Sequence record: OP557969.1
DNA: 64,000 bases
Reading direction: 5' to 3' (one strand)
From: Escherichia phage ph0011
The notes below the pieces were generated by a model, which was not told the DNA's origin, searched no databases, and was given only the letters and a program-made list of their open reading frames with translations. The first letter of the stretch is position 1, and the number at the start of each line of letters is the position of its first letter. Below are positions 5,439 through 20,459 of the stretch, piece after piece. The position numbers and the translations under genes were made by a program.

Positions 5439-5530
5439 GTTTAATAAAGTACTTGCATACTAAGTTAAAACAAGTATAATACTTTCTATCAGGTGGGGAA
5501 TAGTTCCCCACTATATAAGAGGATTAAAAA

Positions 5531-5770
5531 ATGGCTAAATCAAAAATGTTCTTAGGTCACAAAAACAAAACTCATTGGAATGTAAGCCTTTGGATTAATA
5601 ACGATGAATCATTATACCGGTTGGCCCTGGACTTTATTGCCGCCAATACTAATCGCAATGATGCGGCCCGTCATATGATGTTATTTTTAGAACAGACTGG
5701 ACAAGATAAAACACCGGACGGATTCAAATATAGCACTACTGCGATCCGTGCGGCGATGGTTGGAATGTAA
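5531..5770 (+). CDS. hypothetical protein, paralog of 7569..7808
   Basis: Shared GHKNKTHWNVSLWINN and TPDGFKYSTTAIRAAMVGM; own cassette. Confidence 0.7.
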   Translation: MAKSKMFLGHKNKTHWNVSLWINNDESLYRLALDFIAANTNRNDAARHMMLFLEQTGQDKTPDGFKYSTTAIRAAMVGM

Positions 5771-5860
5771 TAGAATAGAATTTATTTAAAGTACTATCAT
5801 TTTTTGCGATAGTACTTTATAATAGTGTTTTATTCATACACCAACGATAAGGGCAATAGC

Positions 5861-6127
5861 ATGAATATTAAGTATTTTGCGACGCGTGAACAAGCTCGGA
5901 AGGCGGCGAAAGTGGAAGGTGCAACGTTTAAAGATATGGGCATACAATCGGAACGTGGTAAACGTTGGGCCATTGTAAAGCGTAGTACAGCCAGATCATT
6001 ACAGTACTGGTTAGCGGCTTTAAAAAGTCCTGCTAGTGTATCGCGTCGAGTGGTAGAAATAAAGCTCGACCGTAAGGGGAATCGTGTTACCGTGTACCGT
6101 ACTAAAAAGATAGCAGTACTTGAATAA
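5861..6127 (+). CDS. hypothetical protein, paralog of 18547..18942
   Basis: Shared FYATRE..FKDMG..DRKGNRVTVY; start at MNIKY after RBS. Confidence 0.6.
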   Translation: MNIKYFATREQARKAAKVEGATFKDMGIQSERGKRWAIVKRSTARSLQYWLAALKSPASVSRRVVEIKLDRKGNRVTVYRTKKIAVLE

Positions 6128-6130
6128 AAA

Positions 6131-6195
6131 GTACTTGCAAACTATGCTTAAAAGCGTATAATACTTTATATCAGGGCGGGGGAATAGTTCCCGCC
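6131..6195 (+). promoter_or_regulatory. early promoter plus 5' leader hairpin cassette
   Basis: AGTACTTGCAA, TATAAT, GCGGGGGAA-tag-TTCCCGCC hairpin. Confidence 0.6.
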
Positions 6196-6214
6196 TATAA
6201 CCGGGAGTAATAAA

Positions 6215-6445
6215 ATGACTAATATGTATATGACTGAAGTTAAAACCGTAAAAGATACTACCACGAATAAAACTACTTACTTACAGCGGATCTGTGGTGT
6301 CTGGCAACGTATCAGCAAATCAAAGTACTTTAAATTAACATCATATGCCAATCGTTCGGATTCATTCAGTACTGAAATAAAAGGTAATAAAGTACACCAA
6401 TACGGCACTTATTATTATTATAGCCTGGACGCGATTGCAGTATAA
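6215..6445 (+). CDS. hypothetical protein (76 aa)
   Basis: ATG directly after hairpin and AGGAGT RBS. Confidence 0.6.
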   Translation: MTNMYMTEVKTVKDTTTNKTTYLQRICGVWQRISKSKYFKLTSYANRSDSFSTEIKGNKVHQYGTYYYYSLDAIAV

Positions 6446-6730
6446 GTAGTTTACAAATCTTTACAATTGCCGGTATTGACTTAAAATGTCAGTACTGGCA
6501 TAATGTATTCATTGGCAGATAAGCCGTGGCCCATAGGGTGCGGAAGTGTATCTATAGAAAAATTAGTTTAGTACAGTTACAATTGTGCACCCTGTGGGTT
6601 AGCTGTTGTCATGGGGTATATTATGCCAGTACTTGATAATGCTGTCAATACTTTTTTACTATTCAGTACTGAAAACTATTTGATAAAAAGTACTTGCAAA
6701 CTATGTTTAAAGGCGTATAATGTTTTACAT

Positions 6731-6803
6731 CAGGACGGGGAACGAAATAAGTAACTTCCCGTTAAGTAGCCCAGGAGTAAGGCATACGAAAAACTCCCCT
6801 GAT
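6731..6803 (+). other. structured about 75-nt leader element (copy 1), candidate small RNA or regulatory leader
   Basis: Starts at promoter +1 (CAGGACGGGGAACG...ACTCCCCTGAT), followed by a second promoter; near-identical copy at 17354-17424. Confidence 0.45.
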
Positions 6804-6871
6804 AAAATAGTTTGACAATTGTTTTTAAAAGCGTATAATACTTACATCAACTACTGAATGAGGGTTACAAA

Positions 6872-7483
6872 ATGAAAACTATCACTACTACTACTTATGT
6901 TATGGATTTTTCTGAATTGAACGCAGAACAAAAAACGTCAGCTATCGAACTGGTTCGGGAACGTGAAAAAAACTTAAACGACGATTATTTTTCTGAAAGT
7001 GAAATTGAATACTATAAAGAAACAGTACTACCGGAATATGGCATTAATGACGCAGAAATACAATTCAGTGGTTTTTGGTCGCAAGGTGACGGTGCATCAA
7101 TTAGTACTGACCACGTTGACGCAGTGAAGTTTTTACGTAAGGTAAGAGCATTAACTAAGTATCGCTCAATCCGTCACCTGCTGAATGAAGATGATTTGGC
7201 GATGAGTGTAAAGCGTTCTCACTCCCGCTACTCACATGAGAACACTGTAAGCGGGTACATTGAATCGGCTTACACTGATTTAACCGCAAAACAAGAAACG
7301 TTAGTTAATGAGCTTGAGGAACTGCTCACTGATACTATTCGTGAATTGTCACGCAAGTTATACCGTGATTTAGAGAATGCATATGAGGATCAATTCACTA
7401 CTGAAAACATCGTATCACTGATTGAGGGTAACGAATATCAATTCAATGTTATTGATGGCGTAGTAGAATCAATTGCATATTAA
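6872..7483 (+). CDS. hypothetical protein (203 aa)
   Basis: ORF with RBS GAGGG; tandem promoters upstream; no confident family call. Confidence 0.65.
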   Translation: MKTITTTTYVMDFSELNAEQKTSAIELVREREKNLNDDYFSESEIEYYKETVLPEYGINDAEIQFSGFWSQGDGASISTDHVDAVKFLRKVRALTKYRSIRHLLNEDDLAMSVKRSHSRYSHENTVSGYIESAYTDLTAKQETLVNELEELLTDTIRELSRKLYRDLENAYEDQFTTENIVSLIEGNEYQFNVIDGVVESIAY

Positions 7484-7485
7484 AA

Positions 7486-7550
7486 AGTACTTGCAAACTA
7501 AGTTTAAAAGCGTATAATACTTTATATCGAGGCGGGGAATGGTTCCCCGC
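7486..7550 (+). promoter_or_regulatory. early promoter plus 5' leader hairpin cassette
   Basis: AGTACTTGCAA, TATAAT, GCGGGGAA-tgg-TTCCCCGC hairpin. Confidence 0.6.
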
Positions 7551-7568
7551 TCAAACGAGGATTTAAAA

Positions 7569-7808
7569 ATGGCTAGTACTAAAACTTACAACGGTCACAA
7601 AAACAAAACTCATTGGAATGTTTCCTTATGGATTAATAACGGTGAGTCATTGTATCGGCTTGCTCAAAGTTGCATCGCACAATGTAAAACTAAAGATATT
7701 GCGGCCCAATGTATGTACCGCAGATTAAAAGCCAACGGTACTACTACAACGCCGGACGGATTCAAGTATAGCACTACGGCGATCCGTGCTGCAATGGTTG
7801 GAATGTAA
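7569..7808 (+). CDS. hypothetical protein, paralog of 5531..5770
   Basis: Start at MASTKTYNGHKNKTHW after hairpin and RBS. Confidence 0.7.
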   Translation: MASTKTYNGHKNKTHWNVSLWINNGESLYRLAQSCIAQCKTKDIAAQCMYRRLKANGTTTTPDGFKYSTTAIRAAMVGM

Positions 7809-7864
7809 CATTCAGTACTGAATCAATGGCGGGTGTGGTTCCCGCCTTTACTGAGGATTATCTA

Positions 7865-8146
7865 ATGAGTAAAGTAATTAACTATACAGTACTAAGCAAG
7901 TCATTATCTATTAGCCAGTGCACCGATGGTTTTTGGCTGTACGATGAAACGCGTGGTATGAATTTAGCTATGCAGGAGAAAACTCCTGATGCGGCATATC
8001 TTAAAGCACTGGAATACTACCAGAAGCGTTTAACGGAAGTAGAAAACAATTATCAGAATCTCAAAGAGAAAGTAGATAATTTCGTTGGTCAATTCGTTGA
8101 CGATGACGAAGGGCACTACTGCGACCGTTGCGGATCTTACAGTTAA
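7865..8146 (+). CDS. hypothetical protein (93 aa), C-terminal CxxC
   Basis: Start at MSKVINY after GGCGGG..CCCGCC hairpin and RBS GAGGAT. Confidence 0.55.
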   Translation: MSKVINYTVLSKSLSISQCTDGFWLYDETRGMNLAMQEKTPDAAYLKALEYYQKRLTEVENNYQNLKEKVDNFVGQFVDDDEGHYCDRCGSYS

Positions 8147-8163
8147 GTACTAAGGATTATATA

Positions 8164-8367
8164 ATGAGTGATTTAATTGAACGTATCAAAGAGCTTGAAG
8201 AAAAAGAATTACAGCTAATCGGCTTACAGAATAAAATCTATCATGATTTGGGGAGTTTTATCAATGCTTGGGATAGTGGCGATCCTGATGCGTTACCTGC
8301 TAACCGCCAGGCAATGATCAATGATGTGCGTGGTGTCTTTGAGTATGTTTTAAAGCAATTAAATTAA
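8164..8367 (+). CDS. hypothetical protein (67 aa)
   Basis: Start at MSDLIER after RBS TAAGGA. Confidence 0.55.
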   Translation: MSDLIERIKELEEKELQLIGLQNKIYHDLGSFINAWDSGDPDALPANRQAMINDVRGVFEYVLKQLN

Positions 8368-8370
8368 AAA

Positions 8371-8436
8371 AGTACTTGCAATTAGTTTTTAGTACTGTAT
8401 AATGTTTTACATAGAGGGGAGAAAATGGTTCTCCCT
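8371..8436 (+). promoter_or_regulatory. early promoter plus 5' leader hairpin cassette
   Basis: AGTACTTGCAA, AGTACTGTATAAT, GGGGAGAAA-atg-GTTCTCCC hairpin. Confidence 0.6.
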
Positions 8437-8454
8437 AGTAAAGAGGAAAATAAA

Positions 8455-8676
8455 ATGGCTAATATTACTACTCTTTCCCAACTTGAAGCACTGGTTAAAT
8501 CTATGCGGGAACATGCCGACAAAATCGGCGTAAAAGATCCAGCCGTTTGCTTTTGTGACGAATTGAATGATGATACATTGGTAATAGCAGAAGTCCAGGA
8601 CGTTTCTAACTATTCATCGCGTTACACTGGCGGCGTAGCAAATAAAGGTGACTTCTGTTTATACCTTACCAAATAA
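8455..8676 (+). CDS. hypothetical protein (73 aa)
   Basis: Start at MANITTL after hairpin and RBS AAGAGGAAA. Confidence 0.65.
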   Translation: MANITTLSQLEALVKSMREHADKIGVKDPAVCFCDELNDDTLVIAEVQDVSNYSSRYTGGVANKGDFCLYLTK

Positions 8677-8840
8677 CAACGCGGGGAGATAATAACTCCC
8701 CGTTACTTTTTCAGTACTGAATCATTTAATAGACGGATCTATGCACCCGGTGGGTTAGTGACTGTTTCGTCTTGATGTAGTAATTATGCCAGTACTGGAT
8801 GCGGTTGTCAAGAACTATTTTTCAAATACTTTTTACTAAA

Positions 8841-8906
8841 GTACTTGCTAATAGTTTTTAAACGCGTATAATGTTTTACATAGCAAGGGGAAACGGTTTC
8901 CCCTGG
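8841..8906 (+). promoter_or_regulatory. early promoter plus 5' leader hairpin cassette
   Basis: AGTACTTGCTA, TATAAT, GGGGAAAC-g-GTTTCCCC hairpin. Confidence 0.6.
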
Positions 8907-8924
8907 TAACTAAGGAATAAGAAA

Positions 8925-9161
8925 ATGATCGAACAAATCAAATCAACGTCTGCGAATGTAACGGGAACGGTATCACACTTTACTAGTGATGAATCGCGGG
9001 GCGTACCCTATTGTGCTGTACATGTAAACACTGAGGGTAACTACTGGTTTACGGTTTACGGATCATATTCATTTGGACGGCCAGGGCATCAAAAAATTCT
9101 GGATAAAGTACAGCCAACGGGTAAAAATATCACTGCTGAAATGTTTTATAAAAAATCATAA
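8925..9161 (+). CDS. hypothetical protein (78 aa)
   Basis: ATG after hairpin and RBS TAAGGA. Confidence 0.65.
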   Translation: MIEQIKSTSANVTGTVSHFTSDESRGVPYCAVHVNTEGNYWFTVYGSYSFGRPGHQKILDKVQPTGKNITAEMFYKKS

Positions 9162-9162
9162 A

Positions 9163-9228
9163 GTACTTGATAATAGTTTTTAGTATTGTATAATATTTTA
9201 CATCGCAAGGGGGAGCGGTTCCCCCTGG
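9163..9228 (+). promoter_or_regulatory. early promoter plus 5' leader hairpin cassette
   Basis: AGTACTTGATA, TGTATAAT, GGGGGAGC-GGTTCCCCC hairpin. Confidence 0.55.
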
Positions 9229-9245
9229 TAACTAAGGATAATAAA

Positions 9246-9545
9246 ATGAAAATTGCAATCATCGCCCTGGCTTTATCTGTTTCCTCTTTCGCTGTTAATG
9301 CGTCATTAGATGTAAGTAGTGAAAAATTCATTCAGTGCACTGTTGCAATGACCGATGAAAGAACTGGCGAGATTGTATTAAAGGATTTAGAGATCCAGCC
9401 GGAAGCATTTAAAAACGGCCCGTTCCATGAAGAAGACGAAAACGGTAGTACAACAATTTATTATGATGCTAGTACTAAACGCGGTTCGGTCACGGTTATG
9501 GATACTGAGAAAGTAACTCATACAGGCGTTATTAATTGCCGTTGA
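9246..9545 (+). CDS. small secreted or periplasmic protein (99 aa) with Sec-type signal peptide
   Basis: N-terminus MKIAIIALALSVSSFAVNA with AxA-like cleavage site; two Cys in mature part. Confidence 0.6.
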   Translation: MKIAIIALALSVSSFAVNASLDVSSEKFIQCTVAMTDERTGEIVLKDLEIQPEAFKNGPFHEEDENGSTTIYYDASTKRGSVTVMDTEKVTHTGVINCR

Positions 9546-9566
9546 TTGATACTACGGGGTAACATC

Positions 9567-9797
9567 ATGACTAAGCGAATAGTTTTACTTAACGCTGGAA
9601 GTACTACACAACTCCTTAACGCCGTGCATTATGATATTGAAACGAGCGTCAATCTTATCAGTACTGTAGTATTGTTGGACACTGGAAAGGTCGCAAATGA
9701 TAAAGCGATTGCAGGTATACTAACGGATCTTAAACCAGGTTGCAGTACTCCAATAACTTTAAATGATAAAGTGTTTAATATTTTACTAACTGATTAA
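9567..9797 (+). CDS. hypothetical protein (76 aa)
   Basis: ATG 22 nt after upstream stop; weak RBS; intrinsic terminator follows. Confidence 0.45.
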   Translation: MTKRIVLLNAGSTTQLLNAVHYDIETSVNLISTVVLLDTGKVANDKAIAGILTDLKPGCSTPITLNDKVFNILLTD

Positions 9798-9803
9798 GTA
9801 CAT

Positions 9804-9830
9804 AGCCCACCAGGTGGGCTTTTTTGTTTT
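9804..9830 (+). terminator. rho-independent terminator
   Basis: AGCCCACC/GGTGGGCT stem then TTTTTTGTTTTT. Confidence 0.75.
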
Positions 9831-9872
9831 TGTAGTATTGTAGTACTGAGATACTTTGAAAATAGTTTTAAA

Positions 9873-9915
9873 AAAGTAGTTGACATTACCGCAAAAAGGC
9901 GTAGAATGTATTACA
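9873..9915 (+). promoter_or_regulatory. sigma70-type promoter followed by long structured leader
   Basis: TTGACA, 17-bp spacer, TAGAAT; about 100-nt leader related to the 6731 element. Confidence 0.5.
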
Positions 9916-10030
9916 TCAAGACGGGGAGCACTAAGTAGACCGCCAGTAAGTCGAACGAAAAACTGGACACGTCGAGAAAACTTTGATACACTAATAAACG
10001 TAAACTAAACTTTAATTGAGGATTTATAAA

Positions 10031-10513
10031 ATGGCGAATGTAAAATCATTTCTGAAAGCACTGATTTCCAACGATACTGCTATTGCGGCTGAACTGCTGG
10101 CGGATCTGGATAACGATACCATGAAAGCAGTACGCAACAATTTTAACATTGCGTACAGTGAAGCTAAAGAACTGCAAGCCAAAAAGGTAGCAGAACTGGA
10201 AGAACAGAAAAAAGCCCGTGAAGAAGAACTACAAGCAACGATTGAAAGTATTCAGGCGGCAGTTGCTGGGTTGGATCTGGATGTAGTTGTAGAAATGGCA
10301 CATAAAGCCCTGGCAGTTAAGTACGGGGAAGATAAGCCAGTAGCTAAACCTAAAAAATGGATTCAGGAACGCGTAACGGTTGTTCTTGATAATGGCGAAG
10401 AACATTTAATTCCCGTGCGTGGTAACTGCATTGCGGTAGTTCTGGATGCTATCAAAGAAAGCGGATTGACTCGCGAGGAATGGATCGAAGCTCACCGCAA
10501 AATTGAAGCATAA
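10031..10513 (+). CDS. hypothetical protein (160 aa), coiled-coil-rich N-terminal half
   Basis: Start at MANVKSF after RBS GAGGAT; charged heptad-like segment EEQKKAREEELQ. Confidence 0.65.
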   Translation: MANVKSFLKALISNDTAIAAELLADLDNDTMKAVRNNFNIAYSEAKELQAKKVAELEEQKKAREEELQATIESIQAAVAGLDLDVVVEMAHKALAVKYGEDKPVAKPKKWIQERVTVVLDNGEEHLIPVRGNCIAVVLDAIKESGLTREEWIEAHRKIEA

Positions 10514-10534
10514 CAATTAAAGTACTGAATCACT

Positions 10535-10568
10535 AGCCCACTTCTTATAGTGGGCTTTTTTGTGTTTA
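10535..10568 (+). terminator. rho-independent terminator
   Basis: AGCCCAC/GTGGGCT stem then TTTTTTGTGTTT. Confidence 0.7.
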
Positions 10569-10788
10569 TCGTTTACCAGTCCACTAGCACCGCCTAGAGT
10601 CGATTCTAACGCATTAAACTGATTATCTGATGAATAGCCCTAGCTGGTGGCGTTAATGCCGTTAGAACGCGATTGAGGACGTTTAAAGTATTTTGCAAAA
10701 AGTAATAAAAAGTACTTGCACGATTAAGAGATTAGAGTATAATTAATTACATCAAGACAAGACACCTTAACTAACTGAGGATATAAAG

Positions 10789-10941
10789 ATGAATACTTAT
10801 GAACTGGATTGTTTCACTTTACAAGTAATGTCAGTATGCAGTAAAAAAGATTGGTCATCAAAGGAATTTAAAGCAGTTATTGCGTGTGCAAAACACGGCA
10901 AGACTATCAATGAAACGGCATCAATCATTGATAAACTTTAA
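10789..10941 (+). CDS. micro-protein (about 50 aa), Cys-containing
   Basis: Promoter (TTGCAC..TATAAT), RBS GAGGAT, ATG; below ORF-track cutoff; hand-read. Confidence 0.4.
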   Translation: MNTYELDCFTLQVMSVCSKKDWSSKEFKAVIACAKHGKTINETASIIDKL

Positions 10942-11012
10942 AAAATAGTTTGACAATAGTTTTAAGTACTGCGATAATACATACATCAACTACTGAATAG
11001 GAATAAAAAACA

Positions 11013-11240
11013 ATGGCTATCGTAATCACTCGCGTAACTGGTACTACTGGCACTGCTTCAACTGTTGCTGTAATTACTAATAAGAAAGGTGCAGAATTAC
11101 ATTTTGCAATGGATAAATGGGCCGTTAATGAGTTTGGTCAGTGGGCAAGTGTAGAATACATTGAAACCTATCAAGTGCCATCGATTAGCTTAACTGATTT
11201 AGGTGTAGAACGTATCCTTTGCCTGGATGAATTAAATTAA
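11013..11240 (+). CDS. hypothetical protein (75 aa), Thr/Gly-rich N-terminus
   Basis: Promoter TTGACA..CGATAAT upstream; RBS AATAGG. Confidence 0.55.
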   Translation: MAIVITRVTGTTGTASTVAVITNKKGAELHFAMDKWAVNEFGQWASVEYIETYQVPSISLTDLGVERILCLDELN

Positions 11241-11326
11241 AAAAGTACTTGCAAAGTAAATCAAATAAAGTATAATACATTACATCAAGGGGAGAAAATG
11301 GTTCTCCCCACTAAGAGGAAACTAAT

Positions 11327-11470
11327 ATGAAAACTTGTCAATGTGGTAAAAAATCTATTACGGGTTTGAAACGGGGCGTTGCACTTTGCCAGTATCATTA
11401 TAATGCTCAAGTATGGGGTAAAGAATGGGCCGACCAGGTGGAAGCAGCAAAGAAAGCAAAAAGTAAGTAA
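11327..11470 (+). CDS. micro-protein (about 47 aa), possible zinc-ribbon (CxCG ... CQYH)
   Basis: Complete cassette: promoter, GGGGAGAA/TTCTCCCC hairpin, RBS AAGAGGAAA, ATG; hand-read. Confidence 0.45.
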   Translation: MKTCQCGKKSITGLKRGVALCQYHYNAQVWGKEWADQVEAAKKAKSK

Positions 11471-11482
11471 AAATATTATCAC

Positions 11483-11520
11483 AGTACTATTGACATAGAT
11501 TGATAGTACTGGCATAATAG
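11483..11520 (+). promoter_or_regulatory. class-2 early promoter (AGTACTATTGACA ... AGTACTGGCATAAT)
   Basis: TTGACA, 17-bp spacer, CATAAT, AGTACT flanking both elements; same module at about 14366 and 22582. Confidence 0.55.
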
Positions 11521-11551
11521 ATTTTATCAAGACAACTAAGAGGAAATTAAA

Positions 11552-11896
11552 ATGGCTAACATCAATACTATAGCAGCACAAAATATCAACCTGTCTTCTG
11601 TTGAAGTTGTACACATTGCCGCCCGGCGTTGGTTCCAGGCGTCTTATGGTAATACTTATTTCTCTTTAACGGTAGATGTTGAAATCAATGGCGAATTTAT
11701 TGAAGTAGTAAACGTGCCGTTCCAATATGGCTACGGGGATCATTTTGACACTGTAGCAATGGAAGAATTTAGCAAGGTTATTAATATGGAAGGTAAAGAG
11801 TTTTTACGCGGTTCTTATCTTTCCCGTTTTTGCCGTGATAATAATATTACTGTTTATAGTTCTGTTAGTGATGTTAAACGCAAAAAAGATCTTTAA
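11552..11896 (+). CDS. hypothetical protein, paralog of 18128..18451
   Basis: Shared GNTY, YGYG and C-terminal DVKRKKD; RBS AAGAGGAAA. Confidence 0.7.
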   Translation: MANINTIAAQNINLSSVEVVHIAARRWFQASYGNTYFSLTVDVEINGEFIEVVNVPFQYGYGDHFDTVAMEEFSKVINMEGKEFLRGSYLSRFCRDNNITVYSSVSDVKRKKDL

Positions 11897-11976
11897 TTAG
11901 CTTTACTTTATGCAGATACTTTGATATAGTGTCTGCATAGGGGAAAGAAATTAAATCAACTTAAGAGGATAGTAAA

Positions 11977-12246
11977 ATGAAAAATATCAGTACTTTAATC
12001 GATGCAGGTACACATGTTCGTCGGTCTATGGTTGCAACCAGTTCTACAAAACAAGTAGCGAGCGGTTATCTTGTATTTGTGCACGATGGTAAACTCCTGG
12101 AACGTTCAATCAATTTTGATGTTAAAAACAATTGCCGTTTTATTATCTTTCGCCGTGAACAATATAAGATCGACATTCCAGCGAAGCCCATTAGCGGGGC
12201 GTACAACGTGCAATCATTGTTTGAGCGTCAACCATACACCTATTAA
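11977..12246 (+). CDS. hypothetical protein (89 aa)
   Basis: RBS AAGAGGA upstream. Confidence 0.6.
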   Translation: MKNISTLIDAGTHVRRSMVATSSTKQVASGYLVFVHDGKLLERSINFDVKNNCRFIIFRREQYKIDIPAKPISGAYNVQSLFERQPYTY

Positions 12247-12297
12247 TCAAAACAACGTTAGCGGTCGATTTAGGCCGCTTATACTGGGGATTATATA

Positions 12298-12570
12298 ATG
12301 AATACTAATCAAGTACTGAACGAGATTGAAAGCATCATTAAACCGATGAAGCGTACTGATGCAATGTTAACACCGGAAGAATGCCGCTTATATGAGCGTT
12401 ACAGCGTCGAACAAGTACAGGAAATGGCTATGGCTATCCCTGCCGTTCAACAGCCTGAGAACGCAGTACAGGACGTTACAGGGGATTATAACATCAATCC
12501 AGTACTAGGGAAGATTACACCAATTACCGAAGAACAAAAAGACTACTTAAGCCAGTACTTAAAAGGTTAA
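12298..12570 (+). CDS. hypothetical protein (90 aa)
   Basis: RBS GGGGA upstream; acidic. Confidence 0.6.
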   Translation: MNTNQVLNEIESIIKPMKRTDAMLTPEECRLYERYSVEQVQEMAMAIPAVQQPENAVQDVTGDYNINPVLGKITPITEEQKDYLSQYLKG

Positions 12571-12575
12571 TTAAT

Positions 12576-12785
12576 ATGCTTACTGTACAGGATAAGATCG
12601 ACATCTTAAAGGTTAATATGTATGTGATTGATGCCGTACCTGGTAAAGTATTTGCATACGATGACACCACTGTAAGCAATTTCTACTATAGCCAGGAAGT
12701 GGGGGATCTTTCTGTACAGTCGGTTATTGAAAACGTAGTTAATGCAGCGTATGAGCATTTACTTTCAAATAGTACTTGCAATTAG
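12576..12785 (+). CDS. hypothetical protein (69 aa)
   Basis: ATG 6 nt after upstream stop. Confidence 0.5.
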   Translation: MLTVQDKIDILKVNMYVIDAVPGKVFAYDDTTVSNFYYSQEVGDLSVQSVIENVVNAAYEHLLSNSTCN

Positions 12786-12833
12786 TTTTTAAACGCGTAT
12801 AATGTTTTACATGAAGGGGAGAAATAGTACTCC
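12771..12833 (+). promoter_or_regulatory. early promoter plus 5' leader hairpin cassette
   Basis: AGTACTTGCAA, TATAAT, GGGGAGAAA-tag-TACTCCC hairpin. Confidence 0.55.
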
Positions 12834-12853
12834 CACTAATTAAGGAATAGTAA

Positions 12854-13000
12854 ATGAAAGCATCAAAAAAGAGTACTAACAAGAAAGCACGTTCAACTTT
12901 AGATGGGGTATTCCCTTTGCGTTTTGTGGATGAAGTAGTTTCCTACCCGCTGGGCCTTACTCCTGAGATGGTAGAAAGTTTGCGTAAATCTAAAAAATAG
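12854..13000 (+). CDS. micro-protein (about 48 aa), basic
   Basis: Cassette (promoter, hairpin, RBS TAAGGA) then ATG; hand-read. Confidence 0.4.
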   Translation: MKASKKSTNKKARSTLDGVFPLRFVDEVVSYPLGLTPEMVESLRKSKK

Positions 13001-13081
13001 TACTTGCAATTAGTTTTTAGTACTGTATAATGTTTTACATGAAGGGGAGAAATGATTCTCCCCAAGAACAGGAGAAACAAA

Positions 13082-13234
13082 ATGAAACAATACAACGCTC
13101 GGTTTGATGTTACTATCGGCAACGGCAAAGGTCAATTCTCTTTCAGTACTCGTAAGAGTTATACAGAAAACTTCTTGCGTAATTGTGCACTGACCGCCGC
13201 ACAAATTAAACATTATTTTCAGGCTAAAAAATGA
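13082..13234 (+). CDS. micro-protein (50 aa)
   Basis: Start at MKQYN after hairpin and RBS AGGAGA. Confidence 0.55.
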   Translation: MKQYNARFDVTIGNGKGQFSFSTRKSYTENFLRNCALTAAQIKHYFQAKK

Positions 13235-13320
13235 AATCATTAGCTTATTATAGTTCGGCCCTGGTCGGTGCATTGATCGCGGCATTGTTAGTAGCTTATC
13301 TATTCTTTATGGTGATTTAA
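13231..13320 (+). CDS. tiny hydrophobic peptide (about 29 aa), predicted single transmembrane helix
   Basis: ATGA overlap with upstream stop; MKSLAYYSSALVGALIAALLVAYLFFMVI; hand-read. Confidence 0.35.
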   Translation: MKSLAYYSSALVGALIAALLVAYLFFMVI

Positions 13321-13458
13321 ATGAATCCTAACGGTATAATTTACAGTACTCCTAAAACGAAAGCAGATAAAGCCAAAGCACGTAAAGCGAAAGTAAAGGA
13401 GTACATCAAGCAAGGCATGACACGAAAGGCGGCAGTACTGAAAGCTAAAAATAAATGA
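13321..13458 (+). CDS. lysine-rich micro-protein (about 45 aa)
   Basis: ATG directly after previous stop; highly basic; hand-read. Confidence 0.35.
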   Translation: MNPNGIIYSTPKTKADKAKARKAKVKEYIKQGMTRKAAVLKAKNK

Positions 13459-13459
13459 A

Positions 13460-13565
13460 AAAAGTGGTTGACTTCGGTCAGCCATTTTGCTATTATATAT
13501 TCATTGAGAGATAGCTCACTAGCCCACGGGGTGCGGGAGTGTATCTATTATATAAGCATTGAGTA
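13460..13565 (+). repeat. GGGTGCG-core intergenic element with its own TTGACT..TATTATATA promoter
   Basis: Related copies at about 17190, 20460 and 23200. Confidence 0.5.
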
Positions 13566-13606
13566 CTGAAAACTATTTTAAAAGTATTTGTAGAAAGTAC
13601 TTGCAA

Positions 13607-13660
13607 ACTATCTCAATAGGCGTATAATGTTTTACATCAAGGGGGAAACGGTTTCCCCTA
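13607..13660 (+). promoter_or_regulatory. early promoter plus 5' leader hairpin cassette
   Basis: AGTACTTGCAA, TATAAT, GGGGGAAAC-g-GTTTCCCC hairpin. Confidence 0.6.
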
Positions 13661-13678
13661 GTAATAAGGAATAAAATC

Positions 13679-14020
13679 ATGACTATTGCAATTGTACAAT
13701 CTAACTTTGAAAACGAAATCATCGCCCAAGCACTGCGTTTAAATGATGGTCGGGCCGAAATTAATTACGGTTTCAATTCAGGCGGTTGTGAAAAATATCA
13801 GTACTTTATAACTGCTGATGGCGGTGTCCTGGGTATTAATACAGTTATTGTAAACATTCAGAAAATTAATTTCAATGATCCAGACGATAGCCAGTTTTAC
13901 ATTATAGGCGTAGACGTGAACTATGAGGATGACTCACTAACTGATGATTACACTGGCGAGAAGTTAGAAAGTGCATACGGTGAAGATGATTATCAGTCAG
14001 TACCGGAAGATTTTGAATAA
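13679..14020 (+). CDS. hypothetical acidic protein (113 aa)
   Basis: RBS TAAGGA after hairpin; Asp/Glu-rich C-terminus. Confidence 0.65.
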   Translation: MTIAIVQSNFENEIIAQALRLNDGRAEINYGFNSGGCEKYQYFITADGGVLGINTVIVNIQKINFNDPDDSQFYIIGVDVNYEDDSLTDDYTGEKLESAYGEDDYQSVPEDFE

Positions 14021-14143
14021 TATTAAAAAATAGTTTGACAATAGATTATAGTACTGTATAATATTTTACATGAAGGGCAACGGGAAGTTTTTAAAACTTC
14101 CCTATAGGGAGAATAGTTCTCCCACTAACAGAGAGAAAACAAA

Positions 14144-14356
14144 ATGGCTAATATCTGCACTGTACTGAAAAATGCAAAACAAGTTTTATTTTCTGATCAC
14201 GATCATTTAAACAAGGATATTACTGGCGTTCGGAATATCAAAGATGTAAAAAGTGTTATGGGCATCTATTGCAATATGAAACGTGTTGGAACGTTCGGTA
14301 ATAAATTTCTATACCAAGCGGGGGATTACAATTTTACACTGACTATCATTAACTAA
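14144..14356 (+). CDS. hypothetical protein (70 aa)
   Basis: Promoter, double hairpin, RBS AGAGAGA. Confidence 0.6.
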   Translation: MANICTVLKNAKQVLFSDHDHLNKDITGVRNIKDVKSVMGIYCNMKRVGTFGNKFLYQAGDYNFTLTIIN

Positions 14357-14438
14357 AAATATTATCACAGTACTATTGACATAGATTGATAGTACTGGCA
14401 TAATAGATTTTATCAATTACACTACTAAGGAATTAAAA

Positions 14439-14618
14439 ATGGCTATCATCGCAAAAACTGAAATCATCGGCCTGGATTCTATCATCATGACGTTTGAAGA
14501 TCAAAAAGGTATGTATGTAGTTTCCTATGGTGATTATGTTCGGGAGTATGAAACGGTAGACGAAGCCTTTGAAAGTTACATTCGCCAGGTGAATAAAGCA
14601 TACGACGATTACCGCTAA
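14439..14618 (+). CDS. micro-protein (about 59 aa)
   Basis: Class-2 promoter, RBS TAAGGA, ATG; hand-read. Confidence 0.45.
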   Translation: MAIIAKTEIIGLDSIIMTFEDQKGMYVVSYGDYVREYETVDEAFESYIRQVNKAYDDYR

Positions 14619-14731
14619 AATATATTACCAGTACTATTAAAGATATTGACAACGTTTGATAGTACTGGCATAATAAGTTTTATAAACAGTAGTCAAATAG
14701 TAGTTAACTTAACAAAAGAGAGAGAAACAAA

Positions 14732-14875
14732 ATGATCGCACTGGATTCATTCATCGATGCAGTTCTGGCAAAAACTGGCGAGGATCTGACCGCAGAACAA
14801 TACGCGATGATCGAGCAATGCCAGCAAGACGGTAAATCGGTGAAAGATACTGTTAAGATTATCCGCAAGATGTAA
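14732..14875 (+). CDS. micro-protein (about 47 aa)
   Basis: Class-2 promoter, RBS AGAGAGAGA, ATG; hairpin follows; hand-read. Confidence 0.4.
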   Translation: MIALDSFIDAVLAKTGEDLTAEQYAMIEQCQQDGKSVKDTVKIIRKM

Positions 14876-14981
14876 GATTATAAGCCCATTAGTTAACGCT
14901 GGTGGGCTTTAATCATTTACCCTATACAATGCCAGTACTAAACCGTTTATCTCGTTAGAATGCATTACAGGACGTTTGACA

Positions 14982-15179
14982 ATGATTAGCATGAAATCAG
15001 TACAAAAACAAATAGAAACATTATCAAAAATTAAACGTAAACAGTACTCATTAGAATATAATATCAATGGTAACTATCATCTAATGAAAGAGAATAATTT
15101 TATCGTCATTGATGAATCATTGCAAATTATTAGTATAGTACTGAAAGCATTAATTAATGATAGAAAAAGGTTAAAATAA
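14982..15179 (+). CDS. hypothetical protein (about 65 aa)
   Basis: Track ORF begins at a TTG; first ATG chosen; no clear RBS. Confidence 0.35.
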   Translation: MISMKSVQKQIETLSKIKRKQYSLEYNINGNYHLMKENNFIVIDESLQIISIVLKALINDRKRLK

Positions 15180-15436
15180 TGGCAGTAGGATTCGCGAAAG
15201 ATGGAGCCGAGCAAGATGAGATTAACGCAGTTATTCAAGCCGCCGTTAACCACGCTAGAAAGCAAATTAACGCACAAATAGAATCACTGATACATTGCCT
15301 CGACTGCGGCGATAAAATCCCTGAGAATCGCCGACAGGCTGTTAAGGGTTGTAAGTACTGCATAACTTGCCAGGAGGATCATGATAGTACTTTTAAACGT
15401 CCCCCGCGTAATTGTTGGCATAGATCTATGAGATAA
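15179..15436 (+). CDS. TraR/DksA-family C4 zinc-finger protein
   Basis: C-x2-C-GDKIPENRR ... C-x2-C spacing typical of TraR-like proteins; start overlaps upstream stop. Confidence 0.7.
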   Translation: MAVGFAKDGAEQDEINAVIQAAVNHARKQINAQIESLIHCLDCGDKIPENRRQAVKGCKYCITCQEDHDSTFKRPPRNCWHRSMR

Positions 15437-15500
15437 AAAGTAATTGACAGTACTGAAAGATAGTGTATAATGTTTTATATCTTAACTGAGGATAGAAATC

Positions 15501-15857
15501 ATGGGAATACAACATATCACGCGGACCACTGACAATGGCGAGATCACTGGTTATCAAGTACAGGGCAAAGTAGCACAATTGCAGTACTGGTTTGTTAAAC
15601 GTGGAATCATTGCACCGGATCTTGATTATGACCGTGTAGCGTTTATTGATTCTCTTTATGTTGATCCTGATAGTCGGGGCAATGGTGAAGGTAACGAATT
15701 AATGAATGCCTTTATTGATGCCGCCGATGATTCAGATTGTATCATCTTAGAATGCGATACGGGAGAAGATAACGCCTTTAATCTTAAAGAATGGTACGAA
15801 GGTTTCGGATTCGAGGTATTGATAGATAGTGAATATCCTATCATGATTTTATCATAG
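15501..15857 (+). CDS. probable small GNAT-family acetyltransferase
   Basis: FIDSLYVDPDSRGNGEGNELMNAF resembles GNAT motif A; 118 aa. Confidence 0.4.
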   Translation: MGIQHITRTTDNGEITGYQVQGKVAQLQYWFVKRGIIAPDLDYDRVAFIDSLYVDPDSRGNGEGNELMNAFIDAADDSDCIILECDTGEDNAFNLKEWYEGFGFEVLIDSEYPIMILS

Positions 15858-15936
15858 TACTTGCATTTAGTTTTCAGTACTGTTATAGTACTTGCATCAA
15901 GGGGAAACATCTTCCCCTACTAAGAGGAAATAAAAA

Positions 15937-16125
15937 ATGGAAAACTTATCAAGTATTTTAGTACAAGATGATTTCGGTAATCCTGGAAGTGCTATCATTG
16001 TTCGGGGCAATAAAGCAACGTTTGTTATTGCTGGTGGACCCGTACAGCGTAGCATTAAAAATAATGCTGTTACCATTAATAATGTACGCTATCGCTTAGA
16101 TAAAGAATTAATTCATAAACTGTAA
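15937..16125 (+). CDS. hypothetical protein (62 aa)
   Basis: Promoter, GGGGAAAC..TTCCCC hairpin, RBS AAGAGGAAA. Confidence 0.6.
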   Translation: MENLSSILVQDDFGNPGSAIIVRGNKATFVIAGGPVQRSIKNNAVTINNVRYRLDKELIHKL

Positions 16126-16152
16126 TATTAATTTAATAGAGGATAACAATAA

Positions 16153-16476
16153 ATGTACATTCATACTACTGTCACAAAGGAAGTCCGTTGCCAGTTCGAA
16201 AGTATTCCGGGCGTATGTTTCATCACTGGTACGTTTTCCCCTGGTGATCGTGATAATCCAGTACTGTTACAGTTACGCCATCCATTATGGGATAAAGCAT
16301 TTGATCTGCCGTTGAATGAATTCGCAACCACTGCTGATAAGTACATTAAAAATATTCGCGAGAATGATTGCCTATTCATTAATGCTTTTAGTGATGCCGC
16401 GTTAAGTGAGATCCATGCTGTATTGGTTGCAATCATGGAATCAATGGAGAAAACTATATTCAAACAAGGTGAATAA
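16153..16476 (+). CDS. hypothetical protein (107 aa)
   Basis: RBS AGAGGA upstream. Confidence 0.6.
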   Translation: MYIHTTVTKEVRCQFESIPGVCFITGTFSPGDRDNPVLLQLRHPLWDKAFDLPLNEFATTADKYIKNIRENDCLFINAFSDAALSEIHAVLVAIMESMEKTIFKQGE

Positions 16477-16481
16477 AAACT

Positions 16482-16542
16482 ATTGACAATGCAATCCAGT
16501 ACTGTATAATAGTTTACATGAAGGGGAGAAATGATTCTCCCC
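16482..16542 (+). promoter_or_regulatory. early promoter plus 5' leader hairpin cassette
   Basis: TTGACA, AGTACTGTATAAT, GGGGAGAA-atga-TTCTCCCC perfect palindrome. Confidence 0.65.
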
Positions 16543-16559
16543 ACTAAGAGGAAAGAAAA

Positions 16560-16772
16560 ATGCAAGGTCAACTAATCGTTCGTAAATGGTCTGATACTAA
16601 CGAAAAACCGTGGGATGTACAATACATCGCCCCAAATGGTGAATCCAGATATCAACCAGGTGTAACGCATAGTACTGAGCAATTCGCCGCCGCTCATCGC
16701 GAACGTCTGTTACAATCAATGCAGCACGGTTCCGGTGAAAAATTCATTCAGGATCATTGGCTGAAAGATTAA
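16560..16772 (+). CDS. hypothetical protein (70 aa)
   Basis: ATG after hairpin and RBS AAGAGGAAA. Confidence 0.65.
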   Translation: MQGQLIVRKWSDTNEKPWDVQYIAPNGESRYQPGVTHSTEQFAAAHRERLLQSMQHGSGEKFIQDHWLKD

Positions 16773-16858
16773 AAAGTACTTGCACAGTACTGAATAAAGT
16801 GTATAATGTTTTATATCGGAAGGGGAATAGTTCCCCTCCTAACAAAGAGGAAAGTATA

Positions 16859-17032
16859 ATGGTCCAGGTAGAATTAACAGTACTGAAAGATCTGTTTTAT
16901 CGGATTGGTACTACTGGCGAATATCCGAAGGGTGATAATGCAAAACTTTACGTATCACTCGACTTATGGCAACGCGAACAATTAGCAACGGCCTGGCGTA
17001 AAGGCAAAGCAGATAGCGAGGTGAAAGCATGA
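16859..17032 (+). CDS. micro-protein (57 aa)
   Basis: Start at MVQVEL after hairpin and RBS AAGAGGAAA. Confidence 0.55.
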   Translation: MVQVELTVLKDLFYRIGTTGEYPKGDNAKLYVSLDLWQREQLATAWRKGKADSEVKA

Positions 17033-17178
17033 AAGAATTCTTATTTGAAGTAGTGTTTCAAGGTGTCGGTAATAACCAACTGATTCGATCAAGTGGTTAT
17101 AATGTTAACCAGGCATGGAATAACATTAAACAAATGTACCCTAACGCTATCACATATCGCAACCCGAAAGAAGTTTAA
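17029..17178 (+). CDS. micro-protein (about 49 aa)
   Basis: ATGA overlap with upstream stop; hand-read. Confidence 0.35.
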   Translation: MKEFLFEVVFQGVGNNQLIRSSGYNVNQAWNNIKQMYPNAITYRNPKEV

Positions 17179-17189
17179 AAATATTTGAA

Positions 17190-17290
17190 AAAGGGATTGA
17201 CTCCGGTCAGTCCCTTTGCTATTATATACGCATAGAAACAAATCAGCCCACAGGGTGCATAAATGTATCTATTGTTTGCTGGTGGCTAGT
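17190..17290 (+). repeat. GGGTGCG-core intergenic element with own promoter
   Basis: GGGATTGACTCCGGTCAGTCCCTTTGCTATTATATA then AGCCCACAGGGTGCAT; near-identical 5' part at 20460 and 23200. Confidence 0.5.
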
Positions 17291-17353
17291 ACTGAAAACT
17301 ATTTTTAAAAAAGTACTTGCATTGTACTTAGAATCAAGTATAATGTTTTACAT

Positions 17354-17424
17354 CAGGACGGGGAACGAAATAAGTAACCCCGTTAAGTAGTCCAGGAGTA
17401 AGACATACGAAAAACTCCCCTGAT
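17354..17424 (+). other. structured about 75-nt leader element (copy 2)
   Basis: Near-identical to 6731-6803; between tandem promoters upstream of 17494. Confidence 0.45.
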
Positions 17425-17493
17425 AAAATAGTTTGACAATAGAAAGTAAACGAGTATAATACTTACATCAACCACTGATAAGGAAACATTAAA

Positions 17494-17769
17494 ATGCGGA
17501 CTTTACTTACAGCTAACGAAATCGAGCAAGTACTGACTACTAATCTGGAACAATGGAAACGTGAAGCAGATATCCAGGCGGTTCAATGCCTTAACGATAA
17601 GTTAACGCCAGATGACTTAAGCACGATTGTTGATCCACAATTTTATGAAGATATTCACGACACGTCTTTAAGCGTCGAGGATGTACTTGATAAGCACTAC
17701 ATTGATACTGATTTACATGTTTACGGTCGTAAAAACTTTATCACTATTCACGACATTTACAATACTTAA
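17494..17769 (+). CDS. hypothetical acidic protein (91 aa)
   Basis: RBS TAAGGAAA upstream. Confidence 0.65.
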   Translation: MRTLLTANEIEQVLTTNLEQWKREADIQAVQCLNDKLTPDDLSTIVDPQFYEDIHDTSLSVEDVLDKHYIDTDLHVYGRKNFITIHDIYNT

Positions 17770-17772
17770 GTA

Positions 17773-17836
17773 TTGACAAAGTATCTTAGTACTGTATAAT
17801 AGTTTACATCAAGTGAGGGGAAACGGTTCCCCTCCT
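17773..17836 (+). promoter_or_regulatory. early promoter plus 5' leader hairpin cassette (duplicate A)
   Basis: TTGACA, AGTACTGTATAAT, GAGGGGAA..TTCCCCTC hairpin; about 85-bp near-identical copy at 18044-18127. Confidence 0.65.
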
Positions 17837-17857
17837 AACAAAGAGAGAGAAATTAAA

Positions 17858-18040
17858 ATGGCTAAGTGCACTATCTGTAAGAAAGAAATCGTATTAGTTC
17901 CAAGTGCCCGTGAACGTGCCGCTCGGTTCGGTGGCAAAGCGTCAGACTATACAAAAATGTTTACTGCCCATGCAGCTTGTCAAGTAGCAAAACGTTCACA
18001 AGAAAGCGTAGAATTAATGCGTAAACTTTCCAAAAAATAA
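17858..18040 (+). CDS. micro-protein (60 aa), Cys/Lys-rich
   Basis: Start at MAKCTICKKE after hairpin and RBS AGAGAGAGA; start set from track frame. Confidence 0.6.
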   Translation: MAKCTICKKEIVLVPSARERAARFGGKASDYTKMFTAHAACQVAKRSQESVELMRKLSKK

Positions 18041-18043
18041 GTA

Positions 18044-18104
18044 TTGACAAAGTATCTTAGTACTGTATAATAGTTTACATCAAGCGAGGGGAATGGTTCC
18101 CCTC
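18044..18104 (+). promoter_or_regulatory. early promoter plus 5' leader hairpin cassette (duplicate B)
   Basis: Near-identical to 17773-17836. Confidence 0.65.
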
Positions 18105-18127
18105 CTAACAAAGAGAGAGAAATAAAA

Positions 18128-18451
18128 ATGGCTATGATCCTTACCCAGAAAGTAGAACTGAAAATTGTAACCTCCTTTGACATTAAAGTTAATCGGTGGA
18201 CTGATAGCCACGGCAATACTTACCACTCCTGCTACGTGTCCGCATTGATTGGTGATCGCTGGGAAGACCTGGGACACGAAACCTTTACATACGGTTACGG
18301 CACACAAGGCGAGTACACGGGTTTAGAAATCATTAAGGAAACTGTAATAGGTTTCAACCCGAAAGAGAAAGTACTACACAGAATTGAGAAAGAGATCAAC
18401 AAAGAAATTACAGTTCGCTACTACGATGTAAAACGTAAGAAAGACATGTAA
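18128..18451 (+). CDS. hypothetical protein, paralog of 11552..11896
   Basis: Shared GNTY, YGYG, DVKRKKD. Confidence 0.7.
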   Translation: MAMILTQKVELKIVTSFDIKVNRWTDSHGNTYHSCYVSALIGDRWEDLGHETFTYGYGTQGEYTGLEIIKETVIGFNPKEKVLHRIEKEINKEITVRYYDVKRKKDM

Positions 18452-18546
18452 TAGAATCCATTTAAAGTACTATTTGACATTGCCCAGATAGTACTTTATA
18501 ATAGACTCTAACTTGTAGTACTAACTTAACTAATAGGATGTATACC

Positions 18547-18942
18547 ATGATTACTAAATTCTACGCTACCCGTGAAGCTGCCCGTATTGTTGCACGCGAG
18601 GAAGGAGCAGCATTTAAAGACATGGGCAAAGATGCACCGAAAGGTCAACGCTGGGCCGTACAGTTCAAAGAAATCTCTGATATTGTGAATTCACCTGAGC
18701 CAGTACTGACAGCAGCAGAACTAAAACGAGCGGATATGCTGGCGGCAATACTTGACGCACAAGATGAGTTTATCGCTGATTCTGATATCAAAGTACAGGT
18801 AAACCACACCGCATGGACTCACGCGGATCACCTGGCAAACCTTAAGCGTCCAAGTGAACTGATTCGCAACCAGAAAGAGATCCGACATGATCGTAAGGGT
18901 AATCGTGTAACAGTATACAGTAAACGCCGCCAGGTTATCTAA
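18547..18942 (+). CDS. hypothetical protein, paralog of 5861..6127
   Basis: Start at MITKFYATRE (RBS AGGA 8 nt upstream). Confidence 0.6.
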   Translation: MITKFYATREAARIVAREEGAAFKDMGKDAPKGQRWAVQFKEISDIVNSPEPVLTAAELKRADMLAAILDAQDEFIADSDIKVQVNHTAWTHADHLANLKRPSELIRNQKEIRHDRKGNRVTVYSKRRQVI

Positions 18943-18964
18943 TAACTTGCAGTACTAACAACAC

Positions 18965-18990
18965 GGCGGGATCAGTTCCCGCCTTTTTTA
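18965..18990 (+). terminator. rho-independent terminator
   Basis: GGCGGGA/TCCCGCC stem then TTTTTTA; same stem type as leader hairpins but with a U-run. Confidence 0.7.
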
Positions 18991-19003
18991 TAGGACAAAC
19001 AAA

Positions 19004-19258: not shown

Positions 19259-19311
19259 CAGTACTCAATTGTTTTAGTATTATGTACACATACCAACACG
19301 GGAGAAACAAA

Positions 19312-20447: not shown

Positions 20448-20459
20448 AAAAGATTAAAA

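Follow-up and report, generated by a model that had tools for sequence, protein, structure and literature searches.

In T4-like phages, small genes are lost, gained or swapped when promoter-early stem-loop (PeSL) cassettes recombine, a process that also generates mini-circles (Arbiol et al. 2010, PMC2839356; Comeau et al. 2014, PMC4122927). Here we describe a comparable arrangement in Escherichia phage ph0011 (sequence record OP557969.1), of which one stretch of 64,000 nucleotides (nt), hereafter the window, was analyzed. At issue are six small genes, designated by their first position in the window, that form three dispersed pairs: 5531 with 7569 (pair 1), 5861 with 18547 (pair 2) and 11552 with 18128 (pair 3). 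Our analysis indicates that they probably belong to old two-locus families whose content is shuffled at promoter cassettes, partly with other coliphages. We read the pattern as modular shuffling of the PeSL type, a kind already known from T4-like phages, in a phage group that is new for it; it introduces no new principle. The distinctive point is cross-family allele replacement at paralogous loci within the terminal repeat of a jumbo phage.

The cassettes resemble PeSLs in several respects. In both systems an intergenic cassette combines an AT-rich stretch, sigma70-like -35 and -10 boxes, a GGGG...CCCC stem-loop (here in part of the cassettes), a Shine-Dalgarno sequence and an ATG. Cassettes are dense among small genes of unknown function, each module has its own expression signals, and the junctions of indels and replacements between close relatives fall in cassettes. 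On the other hand, PeSLs populate the hyperplastic regions of T4-like phages, whereas the cassettes described here lie in the long terminal repeat of an Asteriusvirus, and half of the six cassettes that belong to the pair genes have no hairpin. The exchange described here also spans unrelated phage subfamilies, and the promoters of the present cassettes are predicted from sequence.

Three further points of reference are useful. In xenologous gene displacement, or pseudoparalogy, a distant homolog from another lineage takes over the position of a resident gene, and apparent paralogs are not mutual duplicates. The 11552 locus fits this description, but xenologous displacement is a concept without a molecular system, whereas here the junctions are marked by a regulatory cassette and by a conserved run of C-terminal codons. 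Morons of lambdoid phages, reportedly described by Juhala, Hendrix and colleagues in 2000, are likewise autonomous promoter-gene(-terminator) units that lie between resident genes and spread horizontally; in line with this, gene 18547 has a terminator-like hairpin on its 3' side. Unlike morons, which are prophage-expressed and usually single insertions, the units considered here make up about 50 consecutive genes of a lytic phage with a shared linker. Finally, the long direct terminal repeat (DTR) of phage T5 carries small early genes. As in T5, small genes of a putative host-takeover type lie here in a long DTR, which would give two copies per virion DNA, but there is no sequence relationship. 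To our knowledge, Asteriusviruses have not been reported to inject their DNA in two steps.

The source phage is an Asteriusvirus (a PBECO4/121Q-like, Rak2-like jumbo coliphage). In a megablast search with positions 5000-19000, all strong hits were Asteriusviruses of 348-386 kb, such as PBECO4, 121Q, G17 and phAPEC6. The matches were partial and mosaic, the top one being Escherichia phage UE-S1 (60% coverage, 95% identity), whose ends have been termed 'long-ended T5 type' (PMC12805682). For the relative fEgEco12, the physical end and a DTR of 20,993 bp were established with PhageTerm and restriction digests (PMC13070987). In our alignment, position 1 of fEgEco12 corresponds to window position 3358 and its position 20,993 projects to ~24,690; therefore, all three pairs lie inside the DTR. 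It follows that each DTR gene should occur twice per packaged genome.

About 56 small plus-strand genes lie in the DTR (~4.9-24 kb), the majority with a sigma70-like promoter cassette in front. The cassettes, which end at ~23.8 kb, form repeat families of 22 copies. They are intergenic and consist of AT-rich DNA, with the stop codon of the preceding gene in it, the -35 box (TTGCAA or TTGACA), 16-17 nt, TATAAT, ~12 nt and a GGGG..AATRGTT..CCCC hairpin, ending with the Shine-Dalgarno (ribosome) site and start codon of the next gene. The motif TTG(A/C)(C/A/T)(A/T)-N16-18-TA(T/G)AAT has 32 plus-strand sites in the window, 28 of them within 5.4-23.8 kb, and three on the minus strand; a scan with the consensus promoter gave 80 sites against 50.6 expected. 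The GC-rich stem-loop is present in at least 14 cassettes. Among the pair genes it accompanies 5531, 7569 and 18128 (-14 to -16 kcal/mol, z of about -2.5 to -2.9), whereas 5861, 18547 and 11552 have hairpin-less promoters. The first-pass annotation had assigned a cassette to every copy, which holds for five of the six; at 5861 a TATAAT is present but the -35 box is degenerate. The commonest hairpin here lacks a T run and sits ~12 nt downstream of the -10 box, a position unlike that in the commonest PeSL subclasses (PMC2839356); the terminator scan did not call it terminator-like. This position and the missing T run make a terminator role doubtful. Judging from the sequence, the hairpin is probably located in the 5' untranslated RNA and may be a 5' RNA structure. 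The same promoter-hairpin-ribosome-site layout is seen in genes of the Phapecoctavirus ESCO13.

A separate repeated element of ~93-136 nt was also observed in the DTR (13448-13583, 17177-17269, 20446-20581 and 23193-23285). Its 12-bp stem (AAAGGGATTGAC...GTCAGTCCCTTT) spans a -35-like TTGACT and is followed by TATTAT. It is a composite hairpin and promoter like the classic PeSL, with the stem over the -35 box.

The homology of the three pairs, as first noticed from the sequence, was fully borne out. Pair 1 (5531-5770 and 7569-7808) has 66% identity over 79 amino acids (aa; BLASTP E-value 6e-37), pair 2 (5861-6127 and 18547-18942) 35% identity with a 45-aa internal indel (1e-17) and pair 3 (11552-11896 and 18128-18451) 32% identity (1e-11). 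Compared with 1000 shuffles, the Smith-Waterman z scores were 55.7 (score 253 against a shuffle mean of 23), 22.5 and 17.7, respectively, far beyond chance, while control alignments across pairs gave z scores of ~0. Each pair corresponds to a single family: PF23907 (DUF7249)/phrog_871 for pair 1, phrog_8127 for pair 2 and phrog_6246 for pair 3 (families 1, 2 and 3). In an all-against-all BLASTP comparison of window open reading frames of at least 40 aa, these were the only paralog pairs within 4.5-24 kb. Ribosome-site spacing and homologs favored the starts at 7569 over 7539 (the first ATG, inside the hairpin), at 18547 over 18538 and at 5861 over the GTG at 5825. DUF7249 was the sole Pfam match among the pair proteins; searches of NCBIfam (above its cut-offs), of PADLOC and, for families 1 and 2, of PDB sequences gave no match. 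A literature search, within the library used, found no paper on DUF7249 or on cassette shuffling in Asteriusviruses.

The loci themselves are old. Locus types follow the order 5531, 5861, 7569, 11552, 18128, 18547, and the same order was found by tblastn on fetched loci of UE-S1, EC22.5-2, TH47 and ECO103. Phage fEgEco12 has five of the six loci in this order, lacking the 7569 locus. The loci also recur in EJP2, a divergent Asteriusvirus, in which allele classes have traded places among them. For RaK2, no family 1 or family 3 gene turned up in phage-wide searches or in the 4-kb RaK2 piece examined. Protein identity within pairs is 32-66%. Because the loci are fixed across relatives and the copies are old (synonymous divergence, dS, of 0.88 between 5531 and 7569; 32-35% aa identity in pairs 2 and 3), no duplication or relocation can be assigned to the source phage. 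The pairs had been explained by cassette-mediated duplication and relocation rather than tandem duplication. Part of this stands: the genes are true homologs, they are not in tandem, cassettes mark the rearranged places, and pair 2 shares its promoter. However, the copies were not made in this genome, and comparison with relatives reveals no relocation.

What does vary is the content of the loci, as can be seen for pair 3. In a six-way DNA alignment the window is identical to EC22.5-2 up to the promoter (~11536); identity resumes at the GATGTTAAACGCAAAAAAGAT codons, which encode the DVKRKKD motif, and runs on into the 3' flank, whereas between these flanks the two gene bodies are unrelated, with junctions at ~11536 and 11819-11870. 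Identical flanks around unrelated bodies identify 11552 as an in-place allelic replacement of the resident paralog. Its product is 85% identical to that of ESCO13 (79% at the nt level) versus 32% to that of 18128. The 11552 allele of the source phage, UE-S1 and TH47 falls inside the Stephanstirmvirinae clade (bootstrap 97-100%), and the allele at the same locus in EC22.5-2 and fEgEco12, which ECO103 has too, groups with 18128 (100%). Thus, 11552 nests among Stephanstirmvirinae genes, and 11552 and 18128 are not each other's closest relatives. (The family 3 alignment was built from 11552 homologs; a deep search with 18128 gave two clusters only.) The window-type 11552 allele is present at 95% identity or more in only 8 records; the 18128-type gene is found in 36 of 36 matching records, in 35 of them at 93% identity or more and in EJP2 at 41%. 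The 11552 promoter is ~80% identical to that of its ESCO13 homolog, and Phapecoctaviruses have their family 3 gene next to the family 1 gene.

Two additional observations concern this locus. The 11552 promoter (11464-11552) is 90% identical to 14350-14438, the promoter of gene 14439, and in ESCO13 the homolog of 14439 lies directly 5' of the homolog of 11552. Genes 14439 and 11552 may thus have been acquired jointly and separated later. In ECO103 4-12-1, the main contig has the EC22.5-2-type allele at the 11552 locus and a separate 1658-bp contig (OR844675.1) has a Phapecoctavirus-like allele (95% identity), which suggests a mixed or polymorphic phage population.

Pair 1 has a similar history. 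Both proteins exceed the PF23907 gathering threshold of 27 bits, 5531 with 42.1 and 7569 with 52.2 bits, and carry the family motifs GHKNxxHWNVSLWINN and TPDGxKYSxTAIRAAMVGM. Gene 5531 is closer to the genes of Phapecoctaviruses ESCO13 and 536P1 (95-96% aa, 86% nt) and to those of Justusliebigvirus and Vequintavirus (81-84% aa) than to 7569 (66%). The dS of 5531 against ESCO13 is 0.66. Three allele classes can be distinguished. The alpha class (bootstrap 99.5%) contains 5531, all genes from the 150-kb coliphages (Phapecoctavirus, Justusliebigvirus, Vequintavirus), PGT2 and the EJP2 gene at the 7569 locus. The beta class (100%) consists of 7569 and its orthologs and is confined to Asteriusviruses, and the gamma class (100%), which TH47 and EJP2 have at their 5531 locus, groups with a protein from a Pseudomonas phage (78%). 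This distribution, including the EJP2 alleles, indicates that DUF7249 allele classes move between loci and between phage groups. The beta allele is present at 90% identity or more in 22 records, compared with 36 records with the 18128-type gene. Since 5531 nests among Stephanstirmvirinae genes, it is not the closest relative of 7569, and neither pair 1 nor pair 3 can be viewed as a set of mutual duplicates.

Near-identical DNA at both ends of 5531 and 7569 had suggested recent gene conversion. We rejected this possibility, as dS in these stretches is 0.5-0.9 and the same stretches are conserved family-wide; the near-identity is accounted for by protein constraint. DUF7249 has invariant ends and a hypervariable middle (nonsynonymous divergence of ~1.05 in the middle versus 0 at the C end).

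Pair 2 differs from the other two in being the best fit to duplication of a cassette plus its gene, with an age that is genus-wide or older. Genes 5861 and 18547 have a common hairpin-less promoter (TAATAGAAT..ATTTAAAGTACTAT..GATAGTACTTTATAATAG) that starts directly after the upstream stop codon, as expected had promoter and gene been copied as a unit. Both copies are present in every matched Asteriusvirus record. RaK2 has a single family 2 copy, 41% identical to 18547 and 34% to 5861, compared with 35% between 5861 and 18547. In EJP2, the 5861 locus holds a long form whose 5' half resembles 18547 and whose 3' end resembles 5861, and the 18547 locus holds a short, very divergent form. Because of this long form at the 5861 locus, we consider 5861 a deletion derivative and family 2 to have also exchanged or converted segments. 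A phage-wide search with family 2 gave only weak or partial matches outside Rak2-like jumbo phages, and no family 2 homolog was present at the Phapecoctavirus and Justusliebigvirus loci examined.

The idea that cassettes are the sites of rearrangement gained support from breakpoint mapping. Compared with five Asteriusviruses, the region has 61 distinct synteny breakpoints, of which only 22 fall in gene interiors, although these account for 70% of the region, and 39 fall outside (p = 3e-8); moreover, several of the 22 are only a few bases away from a start or stop codon. Individual modules illustrate the pattern. UE-S1 and TH47 lack the gene that in the window lies between two closely similar cassettes just upstream of 18128 (Table 1) and have one cassette there instead. 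Justusliebigvirus VEcB has a similar copy of this module, 88% identical at the nt level over a 323-nt match that includes the downstream promoter, between its family 3 and family 1 genes. In fEgEco12, segment 7571-8369 (7569 and two more genes) is swapped for an unrelated small gene, with junctions at the start codon and the next cassette. A further indel was noted at 16126-16474: gene 16153-16476 is found in the window and fEgEco12 but not in UE-S1, EC22.5-2 and TH47, and the indel is cassette-bounded, with junctions at the upstream stop codon (16125) and the cassette at 16475.

Exchange extends to other coliphages. In 15-20-kb early-region pieces of ESCO13, 536P1, VEcB and A147, homologs (58-96% aa identity) were found for 14 of the 56 DTR genes. 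Six adjacent ESCO13 genes (6800-8784 of the examined piece) match window genes 5019, 14439, 11552, 5531, 11013 and 14144, which are spread over 9 kb with their order scrambled gene by gene.

How could this arrangement have come about? The simplest account, that of the first-pass annotation, is that promoter-plus-gene cassettes were duplicated within the Asteriusvirus lineage, with the copy inserted at another cassette and later diverging in place. The private promoter shared by pair 2 from the upstream stop codon onward speaks for it, and cassette-bounded gain and loss can be seen directly. Moreover, the allele at the 11552 locus of EC22.5-2, ECO103 and fEgEco12 forms an Asteriusvirus-only clade with 18128 (100%), which fits one real duplication in family 3. 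However, 5531 and 11552 as present in the window are far nearer to Stephanstirmvirinae genes (95% and 85% aa identity) than to 7569 and 18128 (66% and 32%). In trees they nest among the former, so that for pairs 1 and 3 the phylogenies already contradict this account. In addition, the cassettes of 11552 and 18128 differ in type, and with the loci fixed genus-wide, relocation is not visible at this time depth. As a general explanation we therefore regard it as unlikely. Even less probable, in our view, is a single old segmental duplication of an ancestral three-gene block (families 3, 1 and 2) followed by differential loss. It would explain why a family 2 gene lies directly 3' of a family 1 gene at one locus and of a family 3 gene at the other, why pair 2 homology begins at the same ATGTAATAGAAT junction at both loci, and why the family 3 and family 1 homologs of ESCO13 are neighbors. 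Yet none of the genomes examined contains the three-gene block, family 2 homologs are missing from the examined Phapecoctavirus and Justusliebigvirus loci, neither 7569 nor 11552 has an adjoining family 2 gene, and the allele phylogenies demand exchange anyway.

We therefore favor old two-locus families with shuffled content. Several points weigh against this reading. Breakpoints would also come to lie at gene boundaries if recombination were random and recombinants with broken genes were lost afterwards; as such selection gives the same pattern, a causal role of the cassettes is not proven. Between Asteriusvirus and Phapecoctavirus, cassette identity is limited to short patches, except for cassettes that moved along with a module. 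The transfers are not recent (79-86% nt identity, dS of 0.66), and the trees are neighbor-joining trees of 79-120 aa. The direction of transfer, from the 150-kb coliphages, is inferred only from distribution, families 1 and 3 being widespread there and giving no RaK2 hits.

In the favored scenario, the six genes would be members of three families of small early-region accessory proteins in the Asteriusvirus DTR. The DTR is made up of single-gene modules, each with a promoter of the sigma70 type and a ribosome site, and often with a GC hairpin on the 5' side. The two fixed loci per family predate the divergence of the sampled Asteriusviruses. Between phages their content varies, with modules lost, gained or swapped through recombination at or beside cassettes or at conserved codons. 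By analogy with the PeSLs of T4-like phages, the cassettes themselves may serve as the recombination substrate. Exchange partners would include unrelated ~150-kb coliphages (Stephanstirmvirinae, Vequintavirinae) with the same cassette architecture. In the window, 5531 and 11552 are Stephanstirmvirinae-type alleles, and 7569, 18128 and pair 2 are Asteriusvirus-type alleles.

Given the promoter sequences, the genes are predicted to be expressed early by host RNA polymerase. Their position in the DTR and the host-type promoters suggest an early accessory, host-takeover or counter-defence role; similar reasoning has been applied to phage CBB (PMC5259590). Two diverged copies may be useful, for example by covering variant host targets. 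A bolder combination, in which the Asteriusvirus DTR and the early regions of Stephanstirmvirinae and Vequintavirinae, myoviruses with no other relationship that encounter one another in E. coli, share one pool of single-gene modules with a common promoter-hairpin-ribosome-site linker, and two alleles per family are kept on purpose, each neutralizing its own version of a host target, for instance a defence protein, is conceivable, but we hold it only tentatively.

These results show that 'paralogs' from one phage genome can mislead, as two of the six genes are imported alleles at old paralogous loci. They extend cassette-linked shuffling from T4-like phages to the DTR of a Rak2-like jumbo phage and indicate that genes flow between jumbo phages and the 150-kb coliphages. 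They also flag the ~21-kb DTR as the most exchangeable part of these genomes, a point of use to phage therapy genomics. The widespread families DUF7249, phrog_8127 and phrog_6246 are candidates for host-takeover or counter-defence tests. Coordinates of the features discussed are collected in Table 1.

Table 1. Features of the three gene pairs and their surroundings (window coordinates)
Feature	Position	Strand	Details or basis
Direct terminal repeat, ~21 kb	~3358-24690	+	fEgEco12 alignment; all six genes inside
Cassette of copy 1a	5444-5530	+	-35 TTGCAT 5453-5458, -10 TATAAT 5475-5480, hairpin 5492-5512 (-14.2 kcal/mol), ribosome site 5517-5523
Copy 1a, DUF7249 protein, 79 aa, alpha allele	5531-5770	+	homology, trees
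Promoter region of copy 2a	5771-5860	+	-10 TATAAT 5818-5823, -35 degenerate, no hairpin; homologous to copy 2b promoter from just past the upstream stop
Copy 2a, phrog_8127, 88 aa, short form without the central ~45 aa	5861-6127	+	homology
Cassette of copy 1b	7480-7568	+	-35 7491-7496, -10 7513-7518, hairpin 7531-7551, ribosome site 7556-7561
Copy 1b, DUF7249 protein, 79 aa, beta allele	7569-7808	+	first gene of segment 7571-8369
Promoter of copy 3a	11464-11551	+	TTGACA 11490-11495, TG-extended CATAAT 11513-11518, ribosome site 11538-11546, no hairpin
Copy 3a, phrog_6246, 114 aa, Stephanstirmvirinae-type allele	11552-11896	+	homology, trees
Mobile module beside 18128	17756-18127	+	gene 17858-18040; the cassettes on either side, 17756-17831 and 18027-18102, are 88% identical
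Cassette of copy 3b	18027-18102 (-35 18044-18049, -10 18066-18071); hairpin 18084-18105	+	repeat and promoter analysis
Copy 3b, phrog_6246, 107 aa, resident Asteriusvirus-clade copy	18128-18451	+	homology, trees
Promoter of copy 2b	18452-18546	+	TTGACA 18474-18479, TATAAT 18497-18502, no hairpin
Copy 2b, phrog_8127, 131 aa, long form	18547-18942	+	followed by terminator-like hairpin 18965-18983 and T run

Some other features of the window were observed. The left end of the DTR (3358-5000) is a non-coding leader with many CAGTACTG palindromes and, at 4186-4267, an array of GGCTAGAT/GGCTAAAC units with a periodicity of 8/16/24 nt; on sequence grounds it might serve in packaging, end recognition or replication. 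Throughout the window the palindromic hexamer AGTACT is ~20-fold over-represented, and it is densest in 3358-24690: it was seen 14 times against 0.5 expected in the leader, 120 times against 6.3 in 5001-24690 and 94 times against 13 downstream. It is located just 5' of many -35 and -10 boxes, and half of its sites are within coding DNA. Other Asteriusviruses and RaK2 show the excess as well (for RaK2, 32 sites in 4 kb against 1.3 expected), and the hexamer is absent or depleted at Stephanstirmvirinae and Vequintavirinae loci (0-4 against ~5).

The few DTR genes with a name owe it to the annotation of their fEgEco12 homologs: spackle (9246-9545), a DksA-like zinc-finger protein (15179-15436), a GNAT acetyltransferase (15501-15857) and a serine/threonine kinase (19863-20447). 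Elsewhere in the window (0-3, 24.7-32.6 and 38.5-48.7 kb) there are large tandem paralog arrays. Located just outside the DTR (24757-32644 and 38520-48691, also 52-3082), they consist of small genes for proteins of ~70 aa with a GTNYQ motif and of ~120-155 aa, and represent another mode of gene-family growth than the dispersed pairs.

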